Shown here: positions 810-42,029 of the stretch, piece after piece
Position numbering within the stretch: the first letter of the stretch is position 1
Layout: every line of letters starts with the position of its first letter
Virus record (IMG/VR): IMGVR_UViG_3300046780_000286
Location: 1 to 52,047 of that record
Direction: 5' to 3' (one strand)
Length of the DNA: 52,047 nucleotides
Origin: a virus
Lineage: Duplodnaviria > Caudoviricetes
The notes under the pieces: model-generated
Seen by the model: only the letters and a program-made list of their open reading frames with translations
The model's database searches: none
Told to the model about the DNA's origin: nothing
Translations under genes and position numbers: made by a program

Positions 810-1805
810 ATGTTTTCTGACATGCTAACAGAATTGCAGGACAGCATCAGCGATGCTTCGAGAGAAGTTCTCGCTAGATATCTGAATCGCGGTTACAAAG
901 AACTTTACGACACGTTCGATCTACCTTGTTCCGTAACGGACGAGTTCTTTGAGATTGATGGACAAGACGGACAGATTGTACTACCAGAATACGTCGATCA
1001 GATTAGAGGTGCTGGTTCGCGAATGGACTATGTGCCTATTACCGTATCCGATTTCAGGTCTGGCTATAGAATGACACCGTCGTTCCAGCGTCCTTATGAG
1101 TGGCGAATTCGTGGAGAAGTACCATTGGTGACTCAACTGGATGCGACCGATAAACTTCGAGTGACGCTTTTCGGCGTCGAGGAATCTGCCGTTAACGTCA
1201 TGATCATCGGCGAAACCGCACAAGCTGCAACGCACACAGAAACCGTTACTCTCTTGGCTGGTGAAACTACTAAACTGACCGAGGCTCAATGGATTGCTGA
1301 TAATCCCTATGCGATGACTTCGATCACGAAGGATATCACGACGGATAATGACATTGCGCTGACTGTTGCTAGCACCGGCACTGAGGTTTCTAGACTCAGG
1401 AATCGCTTGCTAAAGGCTAGATATCAGCTGCTTCAACTAACCGATCAAAACCCGCAGATTCCCTCGGGTTTCTGGAACGGACCTCCAGGCGCGCAGATCG
1501 TCTACAAGAAAACCCTCATCCCGCTGGTCTTCGACACGGACGAAATCATCTACCCCAAAGCCGAATCGGCTGTGTGCTGGAAAGCGCGTGAGCTTTGGTA
1601 TAATCAGAAAACGGATCAAGCCTCGTTCGCTGCGACAGAACAAGCCAAAACCAAGTGCAATGATCTGATTAACAACATCATGATAAATCAGGAATCCGCT
1701 GGCGAAAAGAAAGTAAACTTCGCTCGGAATCCCTACGTCAATAGCTGGGCATATACTCGCGGTCGTGGACTTCGTTACGGAAATTATTATGGCTACAATA
1801 GGTAA
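810..1805 (+). CDS. Putative head-tail adaptor / tail tubular protein A-like
   Basis: 331 aa. N-terminal helical pattern (LARYLNRGYKELY) and position just before the tube-B-like gene. Confidence 0.5.
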   Translation: MFSDMLTELQDSISDASREVLARYLNRGYKELYDTFDLPCSVTDEFFEIDGQDGQIVLPEYVDQIRGAGSRMDYVPITVSDFRSGYRMTPSFQRPYEWRIRGEVPLVTQLDATDKLRVTLFGVEESAVNVMIIGETAQAATHTETVTLLAGETTKLTEAQWIADNPYAMTSITKDITTDNDIALTVASTGTEVSRLRNRLLKARYQLLQLTDQNPQIPSGFWNGPPGAQIVYKKTLIPLVFDTDEIIYPKAESAVCWKARELWYNQKTDQASFAATEQAKTKCNDLINNIMINQESAGEKKVNFARNPYVNSWAYTRGRGLRYGNYYGYNR

Positions 1806-4227
1806 AATGGATTGGTACGGTGGAATCAATCAACTTCCTGACCGGAGCAAGATTGACTTTGCAACGGAGTACGGCCTTCTTATCAATGGTCGTGTTCGCA
1901 CGAACGAAGTCACACCCGTTGTCGGACCACTTGATATTACTTCTGGACTTCCGACAACGGCTGAGCGCCAAGGACTTTACGCATTTGGATCGTTGCTCTT
2001 AGCATTTGCGGGCGGTAAAGCCTATTACAAAGAAACTACCGCAACGGTTCCAAGCTGGACGCCGGTTACTGCTTTGCAATTATCTCTCACGGAGAAGATC
2101 GAAGCGGTTGCGATTCCGGCATCGAGCATAAACTACAAACGCTATTCGACCGATGCTAGTAATGTCAAAGCGCCAGTTCGTCTTCAAGATGCTCGAAACG
2201 CATCGCCGGCTGCGGTTCTAGTCACAGATGGAGTAAACCAATCTTGGCTCATATTCGCAGACGGTACCTCAAGGCCGACTAAGACCTATGCACAATGGAC
2301 CATTGACGATCCTGAGTATGTTCCTGTAATGCGGATGCCTTACATGTCCTCAGATGGGATATTGTATTGCGTTGGTAAAGATAACAATGGCGTCTATAAC
2401 CAGATTTTCCGTTCGGTTACAGGAAGTCCTTTGAATTTTGTCATTGTTGTCAATACAGCAGGAAACAAATCCGGTACCGAAGCCGAAGGTGGCGCTCCGG
2501 CACTTGCCGAGCGAGCTTCGTTTTCGCCGATTACGTTCCTAGGTGGGATCAATGCCGTCGATGGATCGTTCTTAGTTACAACTGCGACATCGTCGACAGT
2601 ATTTACACCAGACTACGATAGACTTATTTGTTCCGAGCCGACCTACATCAAACAATACCTGTTCGACATCGGTGCCGTTAACGAGAACTCGGTAGCTAAT
2701 GTTCTAGGTGATACGACCATCGTAAATTCTAGAGGTATAAGGTCTTTTAACGGCGTTCAGCAACTCAAGTTCGAGGGCTCTTTTGCGCCGTTCAATATCA
2801 ACGTCAACAGAATCTTCGGTGACATCGTTCAAACAACCACGGCAGTAACGACCTTCGACAACTATGCGGTATATGCGATCCAGACTATCTATGGTTACGG
2901 AATTCTTTGGTACGATATGCTTCTTGCGAAATGGGTATCGCTGGACCTTTATGATAACCAGTCTGCGATTGTTCAGTTTGCTTCGGTTACTGTCGGGGCT
3001 TTGAACGAGTTGTACTTTCTCACTGAGTCCGGGCACATTTTCCAATGCTTCGCGGGTGACGTGCAAAAATGCACCGTTTACCTCGCAGATATTATCCCAC
3101 CAAACAGCGCCACTAGGCAAAGCATGGAAGCCGTTGCGGTAACATTTAGCGGAGGAGACACTGACGGATTTTGCGCGATAGGTTCTTACACTGACGGACG
3201 GTACTCCGGTGCTCTTACACTTCCTCTCGCTGCGGAGAATGTTGCACCAACTGGTGGCGTAGAACCTACTACGGGTCAGCTAGTGCTGGATTCCAATTCA
3301 ACTATTCCTTTGGTGTTCTCTCTTAAGGAAATAAGCACTCAGGGAACTCGTTTAGGAACTAGCATCTCTTGGAACACGAGCGCTCGGCTACTCTCTACTG
3401 TTGTAGAAACGGATGAGGTTGGTCCGACGAACGTGAAAGCGATTCCAGATAACTACGTTAGGTGCTTGAAGATTATTCTGCTTGGGTATGATGGCGTTTG
3501 CAATCCTCAGCAACGCGCGGTCAATCTCAGAATCCAGAAAGAGAATCCAGACTATATCATTGGCCTTGGTTCACACACAGTCGACGGAACTTCTAGCTCA
3601 GTGGCTACGTACTTAAAAGCACATTGGAATAATCAACATGAGAAAGGCACGTTTTATGCTATTCCCGGACCATCCGAGCTAGACACTAGCGTTGGGGAAC
3701 CATTCTTTCAGTATGTTCTCCAAGCACCGTCACGATACAGCATACTATCTCTCGCAGCTGCTAACTTTTATCTCCTCAACTCCGGCATTGATTCGTCCGG
3801 CGGTCAAGTTGAGCCAGATAACTCTGACGGTTCCTCGCTTGCTACGTCCACGCAAGCATTGTGGCTCGAATCCCAAGTCAACGCTAATCGCGCGAAATTC
3901 AATTTCGTCCTGCTCGGAACTCCACCACGAAGTTCCGTTGATGGATTGTCGTCTGCTGCTTGGAACGAGGTAGATTATGCAGGAATCGGCGTTGATGGCG
4001 TGTTCAGCGGACAGGGTTCTTACGAGCGAATCGAGGACTCTCGACGAGTCGTGTTTGTCAATTCCGGAACTGGCGGAGAACCCTTACAAACCTTTGGCGT
4101 CGTTCGAGAGGATTCCGCTGTCAGAATTGAGTCTTTCGGTTACACACGAATCACCATCACGCCACTATCGGCACTCATCGAATTCGTCTCGGTTGATGGC
4201 GAAGTGCTTGATAGACGATTGCTGTGA
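1789..4227 (+). CDS. Tail tubular protein B / stabilisation (nozzle) protein with a C-terminal degenerate metallophosphoesterase-fold domain
   Basis: N-terminal W-x-GG-I-N motif and beta-rich body in podovirus synteny. The last ~255 aa follow calcineurin-like phosphoesterase motif spacing. ATG at 1789 preferred to the track start at 1765. Confidence 0.6.
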   Translation: MATIGKMDWYGGINQLPDRSKIDFATEYGLLINGRVRTNEVTPVVGPLDITSGLPTTAERQGLYAFGSLLLAFAGGKAYYKETTATVPSWTPVTALQLSLTEKIEAVAIPASSINYKRYSTDASNVKAPVRLQDARNASPAAVLVTDGVNQSWLIFADGTSRPTKTYAQWTIDDPEYVPVMRMPYMSSDGILYCVGKDNNGVYNQIFRSVTGSPLNFVIVVNTAGNKSGTEAEGGAPALAERASFSPITFLGGINAVDGSFLVTTATSSTVFTPDYDRLICSEPTYIKQYLFDIGAVNENSVANVLGDTTIVNSRGIRSFNGVQQLKFEGSFAPFNINVNRIFGDIVQTTTAVTTFDNYAVYAIQTIYGYGILWYDMLLAKWVSLDLYDNQSAIVQFASVTVGALNELYFLTESGHIFQCFAGDVQKCTVYLADIIPPNSATRQSMEAVAVTFSGGDTDGFCAIGSYTDGRYSGALTLPLAAENVAPTGGVEPTTGQLVLDSNSTIPLVFSLKEISTQGTRLGTSISWNTSARLLSTVVETDEVGPTNVKAIPDNYVRCLKIILLGYDGVCNPQQRAVNLRIQKENPDYIIGLGSHTVDGTSSSVATYLKAHWNNQHEKGTFYAIPGPSELDTSVGEPFFQYVLQAPSRYSILSLAAANFYLLNSGIDSSGGQVEPDNSDGSSLATSTQALWLESQVNANRAKFNFVLLGTPPRSSVDGLSSAAWNEVDYAGIGVDGVFSGQGSYERIEDSRRVVFVNSGTGGEPLQTFGVVREDSAVRIESFGYTRITITPLSALIEFVSVDGEVLDRRLL

Positions 4228-13921: not shown

Positions 13922-14097
13922 GATACGTTGTATCCACGTTCGATTAAGAATCGTTTTTGCTCTTGGAATTCTTCCTCACTCAAACGAGGTTTTGTCTGAT
14001 CGAAAATTAGGCAAGAACCAATCGCACCAGTGACTGGATAATACAGAAGCTCTGCATATTCAGGATTCGGAATCCATTCTTTCTTCTCATCACTCAT
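13918..14097 (-). CDS. Hypothetical protein (59 aa, not in the ORF track)
   Basis: Hand-translated MSDEKKEWIPNPEYAELL...GYNVS. It fills the gap with ATGA overlaps at both ends. Confidence 0.65.
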   Translation of the reverse strand: MSDEKKEWIPNPEYAELLYYPVTGAIGSCLIFDQTKPRLSEEEFQEQKRFLIERGYNVS

Positions 14098-15092
14098 AGT
14101 TGTATTTCTTTCATCCCAATCGGGTTATGTTCTTCATCATAGTGGCCCCAGTTCTTACCCACAGCCACCGATGATTTCATCCTAAAGCTTTTACCGTCTC
14201 GTCCAACTAAGACGAAAGACTTGATTGCATCCGAAGCAACCTTAGCAGCCTCGTTAATCTCCACGTCGGGAACCTCTAGCAAGATTGAATCATGTTTTTG
14301 GTTCAAGAGATTCCAGCGCTTGTTCTCACGTTGGATGTAATCTTCCACGATGAAGATTGCCTCTGTCGAAAGACAACCCACAGTTGACTGAGGTATCCAA
14401 GAGATAATCTCGCGTTCGTATGAAGGCGTAAAGATTCTTTCAAAGCGCCTAGGATAGCCGAACATATTCACAAGTTCGCGATACTTCTTTGCCATGAATA
14501 TGACCTCCGTTTGCCACTGTTTAATCTCAGGAAAGAGCTTATGGAACATCTCAAGGAACACCTTAGCCTCGGCTGCAGTCATAATCAAAGCACCCTTGGA
14601 TTGCTTCAAGGCGTTGTCCATAAAAGTTTTCCAACCACCGCCATAAGAAGACATATGGACTACCATCTTGCCGACTTTGTAGGGCTTGCCGGAGTTCGCT
14701 ATCCTAGACTTGAGCGTTTTCCAATGAGGTAGTTTAACGAGTTCGCTTGGGGTTAGCTCCGCGAGATAGACTTCTTTAGGAAGAATGCCCGCGAACCATT
14801 GCGGATTCGTTGCTGCGAAAAGATGCAGCGCGATTAAGGTATGTGGTTTCTCACCTACGTTCAACAGGTCTAGATAACGACCGGCCGGGGCTAGATTCGC
14901 GACGACTGCTGACTCGGCGCCGGATTGGTCTGGCTGGACGAAGAAACATCCTTGACGAGCTTGAAGCAGGCAGAGAATTTCTTCGTCAGGATTCTGGAGA
15001 TTTAGTCCTTGGTCGAATAGCTGGCTAGACGACAAGCGGTACGATTTTGTGCCCGCTACTTTGAACGTGCAGATCGCGCGAGGGAGGCTCAT
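14094..15092 (-). CDS. polA: DNA polymerase family A, palm/fingers subunit (C-terminal part of split polymerase)
   Basis: T-x-SYRLSS...NLQN, motif A QPDQSGAE, motif B KVGKMVVHMSSYG, PQST, motif C KHDS. Confidence 0.9.
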   Translation of the reverse strand: MSLPRAICTFKVAGTKSYRLSSSQLFDQGLNLQNPDEEILCLLQARQGCFFVQPDQSGAESAVVANLAPAGRYLDLLNVGEKPHTLIALHLFAATNPQWFAGILPKEVYLAELTPSELVKLPHWKTLKSRIANSGKPYKVGKMVVHMSSYGGGWKTFMDNALKQSKGALIMTAAEAKVFLEMFHKLFPEIKQWQTEVIFMAKKYRELVNMFGYPRRFERIFTPSYEREIISWIPQSTVGCLSTEAIFIVEDYIQRENKRWNLLNQKHDSILLEVPDVEINEAAKVASDAIKSFVLVGRDGKSFRMKSSVAVGKNWGHYDEEHNPIGMKEIQL

Positions 15093-15293: not shown

Positions 15294-16679
15294 TTACCTT
15301 TCTTCAATTCTGTAATACGGCTTAAACTTAAGCAAGTCACGACATTTAAGAACCTCTCTCAACGCAAGCAAAACCCTAATGCTAACGACACGAGGATTCT
15401 TAACAGCGAGAGAATACATAGCATCGGCAGCGGTTGAGTCTTTCTCGGCGGCGGTTTGATAAGTGGAAGTCAGGCCGAGTTGCTTGAAGAAATACTCACC
15501 TAGCTGTTGCGGCGAGGAGACTAGGACGGAACTCCCGGCTAGCATCTGGAACACACGAGTAAGTCCTCTAATCTTTGTCTCTAGCTGTCTTAGTTTAGCC
15601 GCGCGCAAGTCTTCGCGAAACTCGAACCCCGTAAAGCCAGCCCTTAGGTAAATCTCTAGTGACCTATTCGCGGAATCAACTGAAGCTTTTAGTCCCGGTC
15701 TAGCTTCTATATAGCTTCGTTGAGCTAGATACACAGCTCTAGTCGCGAGTACATCAAGTGCGTTATATCTGAGAAGCTGTTGATATTGGTGGTGATTCCT
15801 AGGATACCATGTTCCTGCAGCATCCTTGTGATAGGGAACATTGATCCAGAAAGAGATAACGTGACCAAGAGACTTTTCACTCTCCGGAAAAACGCGATGG
15901 TGCTGGATCATAGTATCTCTTAGATTTGGTCCCCAAGGAATCCCATGGAACATCGCGAGAAATCCTAGGTCAAAAGAGATGTTATGGCCGACAATCACGC
16001 AGCGTTTAAAAGCTCTAGTCAGAGCGGCAAAGAAACGCGGTGGTTGCTTAAGACTACCGTCGTAATTATAGACCGGAATCGAATAAACTGGTCCGGTTTC
16101 TCTAGAGATGGCTAGACATTGTACGACACTAGCCGAGGGCCAAGTTTCGATATCGATGAACAATAACTCACCCGCTTTGAAGCTATCTAGATACCCGGCT
16201 AGATCGGCGTTCCAGATGATATCTTCTTTGTAACCCGAGCGACGTTCATTAAGCAAGAGTTTTCTTATATCGCTCATTGCCCAAAATCGGTAGTTCGCAC
16301 GCGAGGTAATAGATAGGTCTTTGCTGTTGTCAGAGTCTGATCCAGAACCTTCGTCATCTTCATTATCCCACTCGCCATTGAAGGCTTCGGCGCAGTCGAT
16401 AGGGTTGAATGTGGCGACAATGTTGGAAGCCCGCGCGGTGTGGACGTAGCCTCTGAGAGTGGTGATATCTTGGGGTTTGCCACGCCACCTACTAGCTGCT
16501 GGAAAGCCGCAGAGAATCACTGGCCTACCAATACTAGCTGGGTGATAATCTAAATCATCAGTCACGTCGAAATCGCCGCCTATTGCCTCTGCGAGAAAGT
16601 CCGCTGATGGACCGCAGAGCAAGGTGTTCGAGGCTCGGGCGAATCTATCTCTAGACGAAAGAACTACAAGCGGTTTCAT
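15294..16679 (-). CDS. polA: DNA polymerase family A, N-terminal subunit: degenerate UDG-like domain, 3'-5' exonuclease and thumb
   Basis: UDG-like GPS...ILCG..A...ITTLRG...ATFNP; ExoI IDIET, ExoII GHNISFD, ExoIII YNALD; thumb SPQQL. Confidence 0.85.
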   Translation of the reverse strand: MKPLVVLSSRDRFARASNTLLCGPSADFLAEAIGGDFDVTDDLDYHPASIGRPVILCGFPAASRWRGKPQDITTLRGYVHTARASNIVATFNPIDCAEAFNGEWDNEDDEGSGSDSDNSKDLSITSRANYRFWAMSDIRKLLLNERRSGYKEDIIWNADLAGYLDSFKAGELLFIDIETWPSASVVQCLAISRETGPVYSIPVYNYDGSLKQPPRFFAALTRAFKRCVIVGHNISFDLGFLAMFHGIPWGPNLRDTMIQHHRVFPESEKSLGHVISFWINVPYHKDAAGTWYPRNHHQYQQLLRYNALDVLATRAVYLAQRSYIEARPGLKASVDSANRSLEIYLRAGFTGFEFREDLRAAKLRQLETKIRGLTRVFQMLAGSSVLVSSPQQLGEYFFKQLGLTSTYQTAAEKDSTAADAMYSLAVKNPRVVSIRVLLALREVLKCRDLLKFKPYYRIEER

Positions 16680-21339: not shown

Positions 21340-21393
21340 TGTTAAAACATAGAAGCATTTCTAGGACCAAAGTTCTAGAGATTTTTTAATGGG

Positions 21394-22305
21394 TTATAAG
21401 TCTCGAAGACATTCTTCTAATGACATGCCTAGTATGTAAAATCGCACTAGATACGATTCAATTCCCCTAACATTTCCTTCCTCATAACAAGCTCTCGGAA
21501 TTATCTCGTCGCCGGCTTCGACGCGTTTATCTAGGTCTTTATCAAAGACATCCTTGATCCCTAGGTTATCAGCGATCCTGCTTGCGATTGGAATGACATC
21601 GAGAGGTCTATCGCGTAGAGGAGTTGTGCGTAGAACGATCTTGTTGATTCGATGGTACAAGTCACTCCTGAACTCACCCTTCGCGATCATGTCCTTAAGG
21701 TTCTTGTTCGTGGCGAAGACGAACTTGCACTCGACCGTATACTCGGAACTGCCACCTACGGCACGAGCCTGACGAGTTTGAAGAACCCTTAGCAACTTCG
21801 TTTGTTGATTAGGCGGTAGATCACCAACCTCGTCGAAGAAAAGCGTACCAGTTCCAGCCGTTCTGAAGAGACCCTCGGTGGAGTGGTCTGCGCCAGTGAA
21901 CGCGCCTTTCGTGTGACCGAAAAGTAGAGACTCGAATAGACTATCAACAATCCCTGAACAATTCACTGCATGAAAAGAATCCTTCGTGACGATTGTAGTC
22001 CGTCCGATGATTTTCTGCTCATTGTTATTGCCATGGAAGATTCTAGCTAGGAGTTCTTTGCCTGTGCCAGTTTCGCCAAGAATTAATACGGGAAAGTCGA
22101 ACTCGCTAGCATCACGAGCGATTTCTACTACGCGCAACATGGCTGGATCGTAGGTAACGAATTCCGCGATGGCAAGTTTTTGCGGGGTCGGTGCGATCGT
22201 GATGCCTTGACGACGCGCGGCTCCGGCTAGGATGCTATTGACATCGGCGACGGTCTTAGGTGCGACAGGTGTAGTTAAAGTGTCGGCGAATTTGGTTAGT
22301 TTCAT
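21394..22305 (-). CDS. Sigma54-dependent transcriptional activator (bEBP): AAA+ domain only, no receiver domain, no HTH
   Basis: GETGTGKE, AVNC, ESLLFGHTKGAFTGA, LFFDEV, QTKLLRVLQ, ATNKNL, FRSDLYHRI, PLRDR and GNVR in order. The protein ends about 25 aa after sensor II. Confidence 0.95.
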   Translation of the reverse strand: MKLTKFADTLTTPVAPKTVADVNSILAGAARRQGITIAPTPQKLAIAEFVTYDPAMLRVVEIARDASEFDFPVLILGETGTGKELLARIFHGNNNEQKIIGRTTIVTKDSFHAVNCSGIVDSLFESLLFGHTKGAFTGADHSTEGLFRTAGTGTLFFDEVGDLPPNQQTKLLRVLQTRQARAVGGSSEYTVECKFVFATNKNLKDMIAKGEFRSDLYHRINKIVLRTTPLRDRPLDVIPIASRIADNLGIKDVFDKDLDKRVEAGDEIIPRACYEEGNVRGIESYLVRFYILGMSLEECLRDL

Positions 22306-24509
22306 TCTTCTTCCTCCTCATCAGAATCTTCGTCTGTTATGATCTCTCCGATTTCGACTGCGACTGGTTCGGACAATTTATAGTCCAAAGGTTTGAGTTT
22401 TTCTTTAGCGGCTGCGTCCGCGAGTTTAGATTCTAGGTCTAGGTCTAGGCCAGTAGAAGCCGTAAGTGACGTGAGTTTCTTTACGAGAATAGGTACAACA
22501 TGTTCAGTTACGATCGTTCCCTCGAACAAGACCATCCATTGATATGCATCTGATAAAGTATATTCTCGGTAGATGCGTCCGAATCCTTGCACGAATTCTT
22601 CGGCATAATAACACGGAAACGCGAGCATCGTCCTAGGCCTGACGGTTTCGATCTGTTGATCTAGGTCTAGTCCTGTGCCGGCTTTAGACAAGGTACCAAT
22701 GCAGAACTCCGTTCGGCCTTCTTGGAAGTTGTCGATCTCATCCTGAAGTCCTTCATCGCTCTGAGCATAAAGCTTCATGGTCTTGAGCCACTTGTCCATG
22801 TCCGCCTGTTCCTCGGCAGAACGCTCGGTCTTCATGGCGGTGTTCCAATATTTTGTGGAACGATTATACTTCGCCCGCGCTTTCTTATCGGTCCAGACGA
22901 AGTTTTCATCGGTGGAAACTTTATGATGTTGACGCATCCAGTCATAGACCGACAAGCAGTTCTCGGCTGTGATGTTTGGTTCGCCGCCGTAGATAACGCT
23001 GATACGAGAGCGATCTATACCCCTTTTTGCAAACTCCATAAGGCACATCTTGATAGTCTCCTTATAGCTGCACATGATAACTGGCGCTCGGCCTTTGCCG
23101 TGTTCGATCATCGCGAGTTCGACAACGGACTCGGCGCCTTCGCGCTCGGCGGCTTGTCGGAAATTCCCAAACGCCGTGAGACGTGCGGCCCAGTCGTCTG
23201 GCTCCTTACCATTTTTGCGGCAGAGTTCTAGCCACTTTTCTTGCGCGCGTTCGTAGCGATCCTGAGATTCTTTAGTCTTGAAGTGGATGAACTTAACGCC
23301 GTTGTAGGACTTATGTTTCCTGGGGTCAGCAGGTGGATTAACTATTGCGGAAGCTACGCGATCATAATAGGAGAAGATATTTGCGACGGTATGTTCACCC
23401 CTAACGAGTCGTGTTAGACTTCCTTCACCAACTTGCCGACCGAAGTTCGGCCAAGAGATATCATCTACGATCGAACCACCCCAAGAAAGCTGACTCGCGA
23501 GACCGAAAAGCTTGAGATCTTCGCCGATGATGGCTGGCGTGGCAGACATGAAAAGGAACTTCGTACTTGGGGAGATAAAACCTAGTGCCCTTTTAAATGC
23601 CGCTGAGCCCTTGCGTTTGAGCTTATGGCTCTCGTCGAAGATTACAAGCGCAGGTTTTCCTAGCTTGAATTTGAATGCTTGTTCTGGTTCGTTGTTATAG
23701 GGATTAACCCTAGTGTATTCGGTAAAGAGTTCTCTCATCGAGGAAGACCTCAATTCGGAATAGGTCCTAACGATGATGTCATTCTCTAGATGCTGTCCCA
23801 ATCCACAGCGTATTAGTTCGCGAGTGAACTTGATCTTCGTAGCTTTCGGTACGATACATATGACATTCCACAGCGGCATGTTCTTGCCGTTTCCGAAACC
23901 GTAATAGTCATTTTTAAGGAGATCATCAATGACTGCGGCGGCTATGATAGTCTTGCCAGTACCAGTTCCAAGTGGCAAGAGTACCGAGGAGGACTTGCGC
24001 TGGACGAAAAGAGCGTGTCGGATTTTGAACAGACATTTCTTTTGCCTAGGTTTAAGAGTCCTAGCACCTAGCTTTACTGTTCCGAGTTCATCGGATGTGG
24101 GAATTTTGACTGGTCCATCAGGCGTGTACACGACGTCGGTTTTAACGTCGAAGTTAGCAACTGGTGCAGGTTCTACGAAAGACTTCTGCGACTCTGTCAC
24201 GGCCATCTCGACAAAATGGTCGCAGAATTTGAGCACGTTTAGATAGGTGCAAGGAATAGACTTGAACGAGATAGGAACGACTACGCTGTACCTAACAGTT
24301 AGATCATCCCAGGATTTGAACCTGATATCTTTCGCGTAATTCGCTATTGCTTTTGTCCTAGCGACCGCTGCTGAGCGTGCGGCGGCGGTGTTTTGATCGT
24401 CTAACGAGAGACTAGAATGTGACGATGGCTGACTAGCCTTCTTGCTAGGCGCTACTGGAATCTTGCTAGGAATACTAGCTGACACTAGACCGCTTCGGAT
24501 TATTTTCAT
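22302..24509 (-). CDS. Superfamily 2 helicase
   Basis: GTGTGKT, DESH, SAT, GTGLDL, QGFGRIYR and an acidic tail. Confidence 0.85.
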   Translation of the reverse strand: MKIIRSGLVSASIPSKIPVAPSKKASQPSSHSSLSLDDQNTAAARSAAVARTKAIANYAKDIRFKSWDDLTVRYSVVVPISFKSIPCTYLNVLKFCDHFVEMAVTESQKSFVEPAPVANFDVKTDVVYTPDGPVKIPTSDELGTVKLGARTLKPRQKKCLFKIRHALFVQRKSSSVLLPLGTGTGKTIIAAAVIDDLLKNDYYGFGNGKNMPLWNVICIVPKATKIKFTRELIRCGLGQHLENDIIVRTYSELRSSSMRELFTEYTRVNPYNNEPEQAFKFKLGKPALVIFDESHKLKRKGSAAFKRALGFISPSTKFLFMSATPAIIGEDLKLFGLASQLSWGGSIVDDISWPNFGRQVGEGSLTRLVRGEHTVANIFSYYDRVASAIVNPPADPRKHKSYNGVKFIHFKTKESQDRYERAQEKWLELCRKNGKEPDDWAARLTAFGNFRQAAEREGAESVVELAMIEHGKGRAPVIMCSYKETIKMCLMEFAKRGIDRSRISVIYGGEPNITAENCLSVYDWMRQHHKVSTDENFVWTDKKARAKYNRSTKYWNTAMKTERSAEEQADMDKWLKTMKLYAQSDEGLQDEIDNFQEGRTEFCIGTLSKAGTGLDLDQQIETVRPRTMLAFPCYYAEEFVQGFGRIYREYTLSDAYQWMVLFEGTIVTEHVVPILVKKLTSLTASTGLDLDLESKLADAAAKEKLKPLDYKLSEPVAVEIGEIITDEDSDEEEEE

Positions 24510-25219: not shown

Positions 25220-25459
25220 TTATTTTTGATCTTCAATGACATCAATACGCGCGATTAGTTCGGCATCTTTAACCTGCTTTACAGTAAGTCCAATACTTCG
25301 TCCATACTCTTTCAGCTTATTCATTTCACGCGTGGTTTTCCAACGACGTTCTTGCACAAGTTTAAAAAGTCTACGAGCCTCATTGCGATGGTCAATGAGA
25401 AGCTGCAACATCTCCAATTCTAGCGCGAGGATTGCTGTGCCCTGTTTTAATGGCTTCAT
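25220..25459 (-). CDS. Hypothetical basic helical protein
   Basis: 79 aa in the operon. Confidence 0.6.
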   Translation of the reverse strand: MKPLKQGTAILALELEMLQLLIDHRNEARRLFKLVQERRWKTTREMNKLKEYGRSIGLTVKQVKDAELIARIDVIEDQK

Positions 25460-25503
25460 AAAAAAGAAAAAAGCCCTCTAGTAATGGTTAGTCACTAGAG
25501 GGC
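25460..25503 (-). terminator. Intrinsic terminator after the 217-aa gene
   Basis: Minus strand GCCCTCTAGTGAC...TTACTAGAGGGC then TTTTTTCTTTTT. Confidence 0.85.
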
Positions 25504-25542
25504 CACAGTTTGTTGCGTTTTGGTTCCTACCGTTTCGTTCCT

Positions 25543-26196
25543 TTAGGCTACGACCGTCTCAGTCTTAGCGGCCTTATCGGCAGCGACCTTCGCGGCCTTC
25601 TTCTCGCGCATGGACTTCGACTTCTGCTCCTTCGCAGCGAGCAACTCCTTCTGAAGCAGCGCAAGATCGCGCGAACGCTGGATAAGCGCCTTGCCTTCCT
25701 GCGCGAACGTGACCGAGTTCTGACCGCGCTCCTTGAGTAGAGCCTCGAAGCCGTCAGGATTGAGCAACTGCTCCTGAAGGTCAGACATGTGCTGCGTGAG
25801 CGCAGATGTGAGAGCCGCTTGCTGGGACTCAACCTCTTTCAATGAGGTCTTAGCAATAGCAACGCTAACGAACGCAGAAACAATCTTGTCCTCAAAGATC
25901 GCGCCATCCTTGGAGAAGACGATCTCGGCAACGTCGTCGAAGTAATCGCCGAAAATCTTGCTGAACAAGACCTTGCCGGAGTCGGCAGTGTGCGAGTCGG
26001 CTTCGTTCAAAACCGCCGTGAGGAAAGAACCGGCGGCGGTGTTGTCTTCGAGGATCGGCTCAAGAGTGACGTTCTCAGGAATAGTCCCGTCCTTCTTCTT
26101 GCGACCCTGCGTGATGATCTCTTCAAAGTCAAAGACGATTCCGTCAAAAGTGGCCGGAACGGTTGAGACTTCTTGATTATTGGTATCTTCTGACAT
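25543..26196 (-). CDS. Hypothetical protein with coiled-coil and K/A-rich tail, apparently monocistronic
   Basis: 217 aa with an A/C-rich leader, its own promoter motif and its own terminator. Confidence 0.8.
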   Translation of the reverse strand: MSEDTNNQEVSTVPATFDGIVFDFEEIITQGRKKKDGTIPENVTLEPILEDNTAAGSFLTAVLNEADSHTADSGKVLFSKIFGDYFDDVAEIVFSKDGAIFEDKIVSAFVSVAIAKTSLKEVESQQAALTSALTQHMSDLQEQLLNPDGFEALLKERGQNSVTFAQEGKALIQRSRDLALLQKELLAAKEQKSKSMREKKAAKVAADKAAKTETVVA

Positions 26197-26278
26197 ATAA
26201 CTAGTGTTTTATTGTTGTTGTTTTTACTGCGCAGTAACCTAAGGAGGCTACTAAAATTTGTGCTGGGGAATGTAGCTT

Positions 26279-26294
26279 AGCTGGAGGTATGCCA
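26279..26294 (-). promoter_or_regulatory. Candidate sigma54 (-24/-12) promoter
   Basis: Minus strand TGGCATACCTCCAGCT (GG-N10-GC), intergenic, about 80 nt upstream of the start at 26196. Confidence 0.55.
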
Positions 26295-40526: not shown

Positions 40527-40545
40527 CTTGGCACGAATAAAGCTA
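40527..40545 (+). promoter_or_regulatory. Sigma54 (-24/-12) promoter upstream of the major capsid gene
   Basis: CTTGGCACGAATAAAGCTA, with GG at 40530-31 and GC at 40542-43, intergenic. Confidence 0.75.
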
Positions 40546-40581
40546 ATCATCTCTCAAGCGATAAATTCGCAAACGACAATC

Positions 40582-40694
40582 GGAGTAAGTTAGTCTCTAA
40601 CTTGCTTCTGCTAGAGACGCCAACGGCGGCTCAAAGCGAACAAAGAGTGCAAACTCTCATGTTTCTTTGACCAGTCGTTGGCGTTTTTATTTTT
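40582..40694 (+). promoter_or_regulatory. Structured leader of the capsid mRNA (two hairpins, the second followed by a U-tract)
   Basis: GGAGTAAGTTAG/CTAACTTGCTTC hairpin, then ACGCCAACGGC...GCAA loop...GTCGTTGGCGT followed by TTTTATTTTT. Confidence 0.6.
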
Positions 40695-40730
40695 CGCGAA
40701 ACAGTAGCTAATCAGTTAACACTAAATAAT

Positions 40731-42029
40731 ATGCCGGTATTCTATAACCTTGCTCCAACGAATCCGTTGCTGAGCGAAATTCAGAACACAAGCTGGTACA
40801 ATGAGTTGCCGGTTTGGATGGCCATGCAGGAAGTGAACGATCTTATCGACTTTCCTCGCTGGACTAAAAAGTACAAGAAGCGGTCGTGGAAGCCGAACAT
40901 GGGTCCGCTACTCCAGACCGTGATCGCTGAGCGTTCTCCGAAATCTTCTCAGGTCAACACGCCTGCGAACATGAACGAGACCACGCTCTCGACGGTCGTG
41001 GCTCATTACGAGCGCGCGAACTACGCGAACATGAAAGTGCAGAACTTTCAGTCGTTCCAGTTTCATTGGCTTCCTTCGCAGGAAGACTTCCGAACTGGTC
41101 AAGTTGCTACCGCTAAGGACGATCTCATGCGCCAAATCTCTTTTGCGTATGACGACTTCATTCGTTGGCAGGCTTTCAACACCGCGCCGAATGTTTATGT
41201 TGTAGGCAAGGCTGGTGGTGGTCTTACGCCAGTTCTGTACGGTGAAGCTACGCCCACGTCTACTTGGCGTGATGCTAACTTCCTTACCACACAGGGCAAC
41301 AACGTCGGAGCGGTCGGTGCAGGTTTCTTGAACTACGAGCAAATCTGTGCAATCAGGACGATCTTTGAAACCATCGTCGGTGCCACGCCTTGGAATGGTT
41401 CGCCGGGAACTCCGGCCGAGAACGCCACGCTCAAGGGCAAGTTCATCCTGACTGGCGGCTCTGACATCTATGACGCTCTTGCGTTTGATCGTTGGGTCTT
41501 GGACAATCGTCCGATTCAGATGAACCTGCTGAACTCCTTGTTCCGCGGTGCCATCTCGGATAACATCACGTTCCTTCAGGAAAAGTGGCCCATCGCGTTT
41601 ACTGAGGCTGGTGTCCAGCCGCCTGAGGAAATCGAAATGCAGTTGCCGAACCTCACCTATGGTTCGCAGTTCAACTACGAAGTCATTCCTAATCCGGACT
41701 ACGTTAACGCTCCTTATCGCGTTGCGTTCCTTGAGGGAAATGAGCCGAGCGAAATCCTCGAAATTGGCCCGCCGCCCGCGCCGTTCTCCCAGCAGAACAT
41801 CTCGCAAGAGAAGTTCGTGAAGATGAAGTGGAACGGCGAAGTCAAGCTCACCGATAACTTGCTCATTAACTATGGTAACGGAATCACTCCCGATACCAAC
41901 AAGTACGGTGAACTCGTTCAGCTGATCGCTAAGTGTGCGATGGGTTTCGTGCCTAAGAAATCCCGTTGGTGCTTGCCGATTATCTATCGCGTGAATCTCA
42001 CGCCGTCGCTCAATGGCAACGCGGCCTAA
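40731..42029 (+). CDS. Major capsid protein (putative)
   Basis: 432 aa after the scaffold, with its own promoter and strong codon bias. Assigned by synteny. Confidence 0.7.
   Translation: MPVFYNLAPTNPLLSEIQNTSWYNELPVWMAMQEVNDLIDFPRWTKKYKKRSWKPNMGPLLQTVIAERSPKSSQVNTPANMNETTLSTVVAHYERANYANMKVQNFQSFQFHWLPSQEDFRTGQVATAKDDLMRQISFAYDDFIRWQAFNTAPNVYVVGKAGGGLTPVLYGEATPTSTWRDANFLTTQGNNVGAVGAGFLNYEQICAIRTIFETIVGATPWNGSPGTPAENATLKGKFILTGGSDIYDALAFDRWVLDNRPIQMNLLNSLFRGAISDNITFLQEKWPIAFTEAGVQPPEEIEMQLPNLTYGSQFNYEVIPNPDYVNAPYRVAFLEGNEPSEILEIGPPPAPFSQQNISQEKFVKMKWNGEVKLTDNLLINYGNGITPDTNKYGELVQLIAKCAMGFVPKKSRWCLPIIYRVNLTPSLNGNAA

Follow-up and report, generated by a model that had tools for sequence, protein, structure and literature searches.

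Among bacterial transcription systems, only that of sigma-54 remains fully off until an ATPase fires it. We analyzed a 52,047-bp stretch of DNA (the window), which is the whole IMG/VR virus record IMGVR_UViG_3300046780_000286 and, with its 127-bp direct terminal repeats, a complete tailed-phage genome. Our subject is a minus-strand gene in this genome that encodes a sigma-54 activator reduced to its AAA+ core, together with the sigma-54-type promoters that accompany it. Using Pfam and PHROGs, we identified genes for a primase, a split family-A DNA polymerase, an exonuclease, helicases, and a tail-fibre match; most virion proteins, and a 217-amino-acid (aa) gene at 25543-26196, had no match in either collection. 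The minus-strand arm (approximately 11.6 to 32.8 kb) contains small early genes, a ResIII/DEAD helicase, the activator, a PD-(D/E)XK-type exonuclease, an AAA_24 protein, the split polymerase, and the primase. The large virion genes are in the plus-strand arm, which runs from 33.75 kb to the end and on to 11.6 kb.

The stop codon of the helicase gene overlaps the start of the activator gene by 4 nt. Therefore, the two are probably carried on one transcript and expressed with the replication genes, and their order is conserved in four relatives described below (G001 to G004). Six-frame searches of the window detected no Sigma54_DBD, no Sigma70_r2, and no T7-type RNA_pol, although the last is a weak blank, as the control of that search was positive in no control genome. 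A first-pass annotation made from the sequence alone had proposed that the phage lacks an RNA polymerase and a sigma factor of its own; these searches agree with it, weakly so for the T7-type enzyme.

The gene product has the architecture of a bare sigma-54-activator core

Sigma-54 activators, also called bacterial enhancer-binding proteins (bEBPs), belong to clade 6 of the AAA+ proteins (Pfam PF00158). A C-terminal helix-turn-helix (HTH) that binds the enhancer is typical of them, though it is missing in groups such as FlgR/CtcC. The activator open reading frame (ORF) begins with ATG and encodes 303 aa. Its Walker A motif is GETGTGKE (residues 77-84), its L1 loop is ESLLFGHTKGAFTGA (residues 125-139, with GAFTGA at 134-139), and its Walker B motif is FFDEVG, including D158 and E159. 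These are followed by sensor I (ATN, residues 198-200), the arginine-finger region FRSDLYHR (residues 212-219, with R213/R219), and sensor II (GNVR, residues 277-280, with N278/R280). In an alignment of 19 short homologues, the Walker A and B motifs, sensor I, the arginine fingers, sensor II, and GAFTGA were all invariant. These positions and their conservation confirm the first-pass claim that the AAA+ motifs of a bEBP are all present and in order. The GAFTGA signature in loop L1 is described as the contact with sigma-54 (PMC7175178).

The profile search that the same annotation had proposed as a check returned Sigma54_activat over residues 51-225 (E value, 2e-54; 184.2 bits against a cut-off of 20.2), and in the six-frame search the activator scored 185.6 bits for this family. 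The second Pfam match was Sigma54_activ_2 (E value, 1.4e-18). No receiver, GAF, PAS, V4R, or HTH_8 domain was matched in the activator by Pfam even at an E value of ≤1. NCBIfam models of RtcR, NifA, NorR, NtrC, and other named activators matched by their central parts only, far under their full-length cut-offs.

Using phmmer against solved structures, we aligned residues 33-289 of the activator with residues 131-374 of Aquifex NtrC1 (4l4u), which spans the whole AAA+ module and both of its subdomains, including the lid. This leaves approximately 45 residues ahead of the module and approximately 14 behind it (23 past GNVR); a tail of this length has no room for an HTH_8 domain. An AlphaFold2 model built with the 19 homologues had a mean predicted local distance difference test score of 83.6; the only stretches of low confidence were the 40 N-terminal residues and an insert at residues 92-110. 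Foldseek matched the model best to the central domains of NtrC4, NtrC1, FleQ, FlrC, LuxO, ZraR, and PspF (probability, 1.00; target template modelling score, approximately 0.78). Pfam, the NtrC1 alignment, and Foldseek thus agree with the earlier reading that a sensor and a DNA-binding domain are both missing, and together they support the assignment of the protein as a sigma-54-activator AAA+ core. Since it does not have the HTH expected of bEBPs, the protein is an activator core and not strictly an "enhancer-binding" protein. Family-wide conservation of the intact motifs, together with the established behavior of the family as described in PMC7175178, suggests that it would be an active ATPase contacting host sigma-54.

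Two elements of the protein are absent from NtrC1. The insert at residues 92-110 lies past the Walker A helix, amounts to 10 to 20 aa, and varies within the family. Residues 290-303 form a short C-terminal tail (LG..-.EA..DL) that is conserved in the subclade of the window protein.

The activator is a core gene of a phage family

A protein search returned a graded series of short homologues of 275 to 303 aa (83%, 66%, 53%, and so on down to 40% identity) on contigs of 48 to 56 kb, those of the 83% and 66% homologues measuring 52.5 and 54.9 kb, and the long bacterial activators with receiver and HTH ranked below them. A scan of viral contigs with the single protein found no relative, but an alignment-based scan did, yielding 108 relatives; the best 80 of the 108 were analyzed. 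Among these best 80 loci, 71 contained a complete ORF, of 235 to 330 aa in 62 cases and longer in 9, and the GAFTGA-type loop was kept in 73 of the 80 viral ORFs, cut ORFs included. The metagenome scan gave, among the matches listed, mostly long activator loci of the bacterial type, and the 83% and 66% homologues were not among them.

We built a tree of 191 sequences with FastTree. One clade with 99% local support comprised all 90 long metagenome forms among the matches listed, 8 of the 9 long viral forms, and 2 short forms. All 62 short viral forms fell outside this clade, and the window protein belonged to a set of 44 short forms that grouped together with 98% support. As the bacterial sequences are only those nearest the query and the root is arbitrary, the tree shows a separation and not a dated origin.

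Synteny extends beyond the activator. Three of the loci (L002, L003, and L004) are syntenic with the window over the helicase, activator, exonuclease, polymerase, and primase genes, and five whole relatives (G001 to G005) also share virion genes with it. A capsid homologue is encoded at 57 viral loci, and the capsid proteins of the relatives are only 26 to 50% identical. Behind these capsid loci, 38 of the 43 searchable records had a Sigma54_activat match, and the five records without an activator are fragments (15 to 66% complete). Among the records with a capsid homologue, all 31 with a completeness of at least 90% had the activator, in frames of 230 to 323 aa. Its occurrence in 31 of 31 near-complete relatives makes the activator a core gene of this phage family; as described in the next section, it is accompanied by sigma-54 promoters. 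The G+C content of the family ranges from 43% to 59%.

A tblastn search of INPHARED with the activator gave 65 records, all below 60% identity, and no cultured phage with a close homologue. Judged from their names and annotation (whole-genome shotgun accessions; host genes such as glnG, prpR, and atoC), most of the records listed resemble bacterial contigs or fragments filed as phage. Megablast of INPHARED with 20 kb of the window gave no match, and a scan of genome contigs with the capsid alignment found no relative, and hence no prophage and no clue to the host.

Sigma-54-type promoters are found around the activator and upstream of the capsid gene in related phages

Sigma-54 promoters have a consensus of the form TGGCAC-N5-TTGC, with GG and GC exactly 10 nt apart, and transcription starts approximately 12 nt downstream and depends on rpoN. 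We counted the strict pattern TGGCA[CT]-N5-TTGC in 1.21 Mb, made up of the window and the 80 loci centred on the activator, and found 54 occurrences, compared to 4.0 expected from mononucleotide shuffles. After removal of 10 near-duplicates, the remaining 70 non-redundant loci had 43 matches with a spacer of 5 on the strand of the activator and 6 on the opposite strand, and spacers of 1 to 4 and 6 to 10 gave 0 to 6 matches each. Sigma-54-type sites are therefore at least 7-fold over-represented around the gene, at the exact spacing and on its strand, in the 70 viral loci. Most strict matches in the relatives fall in short open frames, i.e., in non-coding DNA. About 21 lie at the activator stop codon or within a few hundred bases past it, in more distant relatives and not in G001 or G002.

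We then sampled the family independently of the activator. Of the 57 loci with a capsid homologue, 56 had at least 320 nt upstream of the gene, which reduced to 48 distinct regions. TGGCAY-N7-GC occurred on the coding strand, 124 to 253 nt before the capsid start, in 39 of these 48 regions; with any of the remaining spacers in the range 3 to 11, or on the reverse strand, there were 0 or 1 of 48. The 39 sites are not 39 independent lineages, as 12 regions share one identical site and there are approximately 26 distinct site sequences. Across them the -24 and -12 elements are fixed and the five spacer bases vary. The consensus of 40 capsid-upstream sites, the window included, is T-TGGCAY-G/A-N4-TTGC-T-A, which we take to be a textbook sigma-54 promoter. 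The first-pass annotation had named, beforehand and as a test able to refute it, the co-occurrence of the gene with -24/-12 motifs in related phages. Such co-occurrence was found in both samplings (39 of 48 regions; 43 matches at the exact spacing versus 0 to 6 at others), and the proposal was thus not refuted by this test.

In a large, more distant subclade (L009, L018-L022, L025-L029, L032-L034, L041, L042, L044, L046, and L047), gene and site form a tight cassette. A consensus site lies directly 3' of the activator stop codon, or up to approximately 600 nt past it in L017, L027, L028, and L047, and is usually ahead of an ORF of about 135 aa. This arrangement is absent from G001 and G002, the nearest relatives of the window.

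Placement of sigma-54-type sites in the window

The pattern TGGC-N9-GC-W occurs 12 times in the window. Five of the 12 are intergenic, although intergenic DNA makes up 9% of the genome, and each of them is oriented toward the gene downstream of it: 26294(-), 29778(-), 31295(-), 33719(+), and 40529(+). In 2,000 shuffles of the intergenic segments, the mean number of such sites was 0.30 and the maximum was 3; spacers of 5 to 8 and 10 to 13 gave 0 or 1. It is only the placement of the window sites, and not their number, that is non-random. The features are listed in Table 1.

Table 1. Activator gene, neighbouring gene, and candidate transcription signals in the window
Feature	Coordinates	Strand	Position and basis
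Stand-alone sigma-54 activator gene (AAA+ core only, GAFTGA loop intact)	21394..22305	-	ORF, Pfam, NtrC1 alignment, AlphaFold2/Foldseek, motifs
ResIII/DEAD helicase gene	22302..24509	-	Directly upstream of activator; stop overlaps activator start
Sigma-54-type promoter TGGCACGAATAAAGCT	40529..40544	+	~190 nt before major capsid gene (40731-42029); intergenic, co-oriented, best position weight matrix (PWM) match in window
Sigma-54-type promoter TGGCATAGATCATGCA	33719..33734	+	Head of packaging/virion block; first gene starts 33752
Sigma-54-type promoter TGGCATACCTCCAGCT	26279..26294	-	Before lone 217-aa gene
Candidate sigma-54-type promoter TGGCCTGTTCTATGCT	31280..31295	-	Before gene 30791-31132; intergenic, co-oriented
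Candidate sigma-54-type promoter TGGCATAGACCTTGCG	29935..29950	-	Only exact TGGCAY-N5-TTGC in window; upstream of tRNA region
Weak candidate sigma-54-type site TGGCCGTTTTAATGCT	29763..29778	-	~100 nt before tRNA-Arg
Weak candidate site TGGTCCTAGAAATGCT (TGGTCC...ATGCT)	21354..21369	-	54-nt gap just past activator stop; GG-N10-GC spacing right, -24 poor
Strong intrinsic-terminator-like hairpin, 13 bp + T-run	25472..25504	-	Separates 217-aa gene from helicase-activator operon
Sigma-70-like promoter match TTGACC-16-TAGACT	25368..25395	-	Could start helicase-activator operon; consensus match, regional count not above shuffles

Three of the window sites have counterparts at the same place in relatives. 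The site at 40529 is matched before the capsid gene in all five whole relatives (G001, TGGCATGAATCCTGCG; G002, 7054; G003, 47080; G004, 46127 and 46249; G005, 5437). The site at 33719 is matched before the first gene of the packaging arm in G001 (13373) and G002 (55697), and the site at 26294 before the homologous gene in G001 (21630, TGGCACGCCACAAGCT). The site at 29950 falls within a doubtful 78-aa ORF and was left out of the intergenic count. The site at 29778 may be a chance match, because it overlaps the T-run of a terminator-like hairpin.

G001 and G002 have a further sigma-54-type site before the helicase-activator operon (22406 and 43348, respectively). Ahead of this operon in the window there is a poor GG-N10-GC match at 25416; both this and the sigma-70-like match at 25395-25368 lie downstream of the terminator at 25504-25472. 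On the other side of the terminator, the region 25472-26294 (-) has the form of a one-gene unit, in which the site at 26294 is followed by the 217-aa ORF, which has no family match, and then by the 13-bp hairpin terminator.

The capsid leader (40556-40735, plus strand; approximately 180 to 190 nt) contains two long hairpins (-63.7 kcal/mol; z score, -7.05). Its sequence is conserved in G001, and closer relatives have a strongly folding leader with a T-run 39 to 51 nt before the ATG. Possible roles of this leader are termination or attenuation, cleavage by RNase III, and stabilisation of the mRNA. In the early arm, a tRNA-Arg gene with the anticodon GCG (29581-29663, minus strand) has the sigma-54-like sites at 29950 and 29778 upstream of it; a sigma-54-driven tRNA would be unusual.

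Proposed mechanism and alternative explanations

The phage probably makes a working sigma-54 activator, reduced to the AAA+ motor, that would open the host sigma-54 holoenzyme at phage -24/-12 promoters for packaging, capsid, and some middle units. According to this model, the activator would be made from the replication (early/middle) arm, probably along with the helicase, and would assemble as the usual bEBP ring, an assembly that we assume from its family. Host RNA polymerase-sigma-54 would sit closed at the phage promoters until the activator remodels it by means of ATP and the GAFTGA loops. This would switch on the packaging block through the site at 33719, the capsid gene through that at 40529, and some middle units through the site at 26294 and perhaps those at 31295 and 29950. 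Lacking both a sensor and a DNA-binding domain, the protein would most likely act from solution once it has accumulated, so that its own synthesis would be the timer.

Constitutive and enhancer-independent action is suggested by this domain architecture and by the behavior of DctD250, a fragment comprising residues 141-390 of Sinorhizobium meliloti DctD. DctD250 is described as constitutive and promiscuous, activating from solution without an enhancer (PMC3844500). It activates unrelated sigma-54 promoters in Salmonella and Escherichia coli, about 10-fold more weakly than enhancer-bound cognate NtrC in the comparison made at one promoter (PMC3844500). The phage protein might likewise fire host sigma-54 promoters, and it might be the only temporal switch of the phage.

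The first-pass annotation had cast the activator as the temporal switch of the phage. The sites before the packaging and capsid genes support this, but the control appears not to be purely late. Because sites also precede genes of the replication arm, and because those of G001 and G002 precede the activator's own operon, the circuit looks like one of middle and late control with positive feedback. The sites in G001 and G002 suggest that this feedback would act on the activator operon.

Several observations weigh against the proposed mechanism. The genome-wide count of motifs in the window is at chance (21 found compared to 23 expected with ≤2 mismatches), and the PWM derived from the relatives' sites reaches a maximum of 15.9 in the window against a mean maximum of 13.9 in shuffles. 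The pattern used for the window and the curated gene list were chosen after the sequence had been viewed, and the control with other spacers is the fairer guide. The -12 elements of the window are off-consensus, with ATGC, AAGC, and CAGC in place of TTGC. At the 33719 site, the GC lies 18 nt ahead of the ATG, which gives a leader of only 6 to 7 nt or so. Between the 40529 site and the capsid ATG, the second hairpin of the leader is followed by TTTTTATTTTT, a U-run like that of an intrinsic terminator. In the capsid-upstream sample, 9 of the 48 regions had no motif, mostly those of one subgroup with a shifted capsid alignment. Moreover, no RNA runs containing window sequence were found, and the presence of rpoN in the host is an assumption.

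The chance-level count in the window speaks for an alternative in which the gene is a piece of a host activator gene, captured not long ago and without function, and the -24/-12 matches in the window are fortuitous. This explanation is extremely improbable: the gene is intact in every near-complete relative even though capsid identities are so low, the short viral forms are split from the long-form clade by the 99%-supported branch, and the promoter sites hold their position as the bases of the spacer change. The tree separation, the conservation of the capsid sites, and the presence in 31 of 31 relatives contradict the idea of a dead fragment, and we rejected it. The protein could instead be an anti-host decoy that titrates sigma-54 or poisons the rings of host activators, shutting stress responses (e.g., Psp or RtcR), with the phage promoters served by host activators. 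Several sigma-54 regulons are indeed stress or envelope responses (PMC3844500), and a protein that has no DNA-binding domain could interfere in trans. Yet a pure decoy would not need the catalytic motifs and GAFTGA, which are invariant in the family, and the gene co-occurs with canonical phage-borne sigma-54 promoters on the same strand, often adjoining it. Host activators, moreover, would need enhancers, on which a family with varied hosts cannot rely, and we consider this alternative very unlikely.

A different possibility is that the protein cannot act alone and co-assembles with a DNA-binding host activator, redirecting the host protein or its enhancer sites to the phage promoters. The bare architecture of the phage protein is that of FleT of Rhodobacter sphaeroides, the one natural activator described in PMC10084136 as having neither an N-terminal domain nor an HTH, and FleT is needed together with FleQ at most of its target promoters (PMC10084136). 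However, the G+C range of the family presumably reflects many hosts, which makes reliance on one host partner awkward, and the engineered AAA+-only protein DctD250 works alone (PMC3844500). A FleT-like subunit is unlikely here, although less so than a decoy. The reading that we favour, a working activator at phage promoters, can be extended to the whole family: a widespread group of tailed phages of about 50 kb, from soil, freshwater, and marine metagenomes, which without a phage sigma factor or polymerase would rely on host sigma-54 RNA polymerase for the whole of its middle and late programme, with its own constitutive, enhancer-independent activator and positive feedback. We regard this broader proposal as evenly balanced between being right and wrong.

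Comparison with known systems

Among natural proteins, FleT of Rhodobacter (Cereibacter) sphaeroides is the closest in architecture, consisting of the AAA+ core only, with no N-terminal regulatory domain or HTH (PMC10084136). FleT is chromosomal, belongs to a flagellar hierarchy, and is reported to act with FleQ (PMC10084136), whereas the phage activator is a viral core gene with promoters of its own and no known partner. DctD250 and PspF 1-275 are likewise central domains alone, and PspF AAA+ structures were among the Foldseek matches. These two are laboratory truncations, whereas the phage activator is a natural, conserved gene with an N-terminal extension of approximately 45 aa and the 10- to 20-aa insert.

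The group 5 bEBPs, such as FlgR (Helicobacter/Campylobacter) and CtcC (Chlamydia), resemble the phage activator in having no DNA-binding domain (PMC7175178). FlgR and CtcC keep a receiver and are switched by phosphorylation, in contrast to the phage protein, which has no receiver. The group 4 bEBPs PspF and HrpR/HrpS share with it the absence of an N-terminal sensor domain (PMC7175178). These group 4 proteins are regulated by a partner protein that acts on them in trans (PMC7175178), and no PspA- or HrpV-like partner was identified in the phage; PspF and HrpR/HrpS also keep a C-terminal HTH, which the phage activator does not have. The nearest phage case is Htm (Gp204), for which the authors of a preprint hypothesise an action on the sigma-54 polymerase (bioRxiv 10.64898/2026.10.06.757011). 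Htm is stated by its authors to have no GAFTGA loop or motif (bioRxiv 10.64898/2026.10.06.757011). In the phage activator, by contrast, GAFTGA is intact and the promoters are canonical -24/-12 promoters.

In the phage late-gene switches, namely, T4 gp55/gp33 with the sliding clamp, lambda Q, Mu C/Mor, and the T7 RNA polymerase, a factor made early turns on the virion genes later. These classical switches use a phage sigma factor or polymerase, antitermination, or activators of sigma-70 promoters. To our knowledge, none of them uses sigma-54 and an ATP-driven activator.

Novelty and significance

A full-text literature search, which had most subscription journals and supplements outside its coverage, found no report of a phage gene-control programme based on sigma-54. 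In line with the first-pass remark that no characterised phage is known to work in this way, the search gave none, the nearest being the Htm preprint, in which the protein is described as having no GAFTGA. Both the protein family and truncated forms of it are already known; of a virus family with such an activator as a core gene and with sigma-54 promoters of its own, we found no description. The observation is confirmed, and its interpretation is supported in its core by the comparative evidence.

A phage with its own minimal activator would have a tight timer of virion gene expression built in, and would need for it no more than the host polymerase and a host sigma factor. If the interpretation is true, this is a new strategy among the few phage temporal switches, and it accounts for a core gene of a large family of uncultured phages. 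These phages would then depend on host rpoN, which would offer both a route to resistance and a clue to the host. The activators and their matched promoters would also be natural, compact, enhancer-independent parts for orthogonal gene circuits. If the whole-family programme is true as well, the entire sigma-54 regulon of the host would be fired during infection as a side effect, and viral gene control of this kind would be without a described precedent.

Other features of the genome

Two soil metagenomes share sequence words with the window. One is possibly its source, and the other shares only 0.06 of the sampled words, so they do not indicate a habitat. No Rfam family was found in the window.

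The non-coding region between the arms (32782-33751; 970 bp) has a (TA)n-rich stretch at approximately 33300-33340 and back-to-back sigma-70-like promoter matches at 33394-33423 (+) and 33405-33376 (-). It likely contains early promoters and perhaps an origin. In the virion arm, an 820-aa protein (1765-4227, plus strand) has a C-terminal Metallophos_C domain (E value, 2.2e-05). The family-A DNA polymerase is split into an exonuclease part (15294-16679) and a polymerase part (14094-15092), both on the minus strand, with a 62-aa ORF between them, and the split is also present in G002 to G005.

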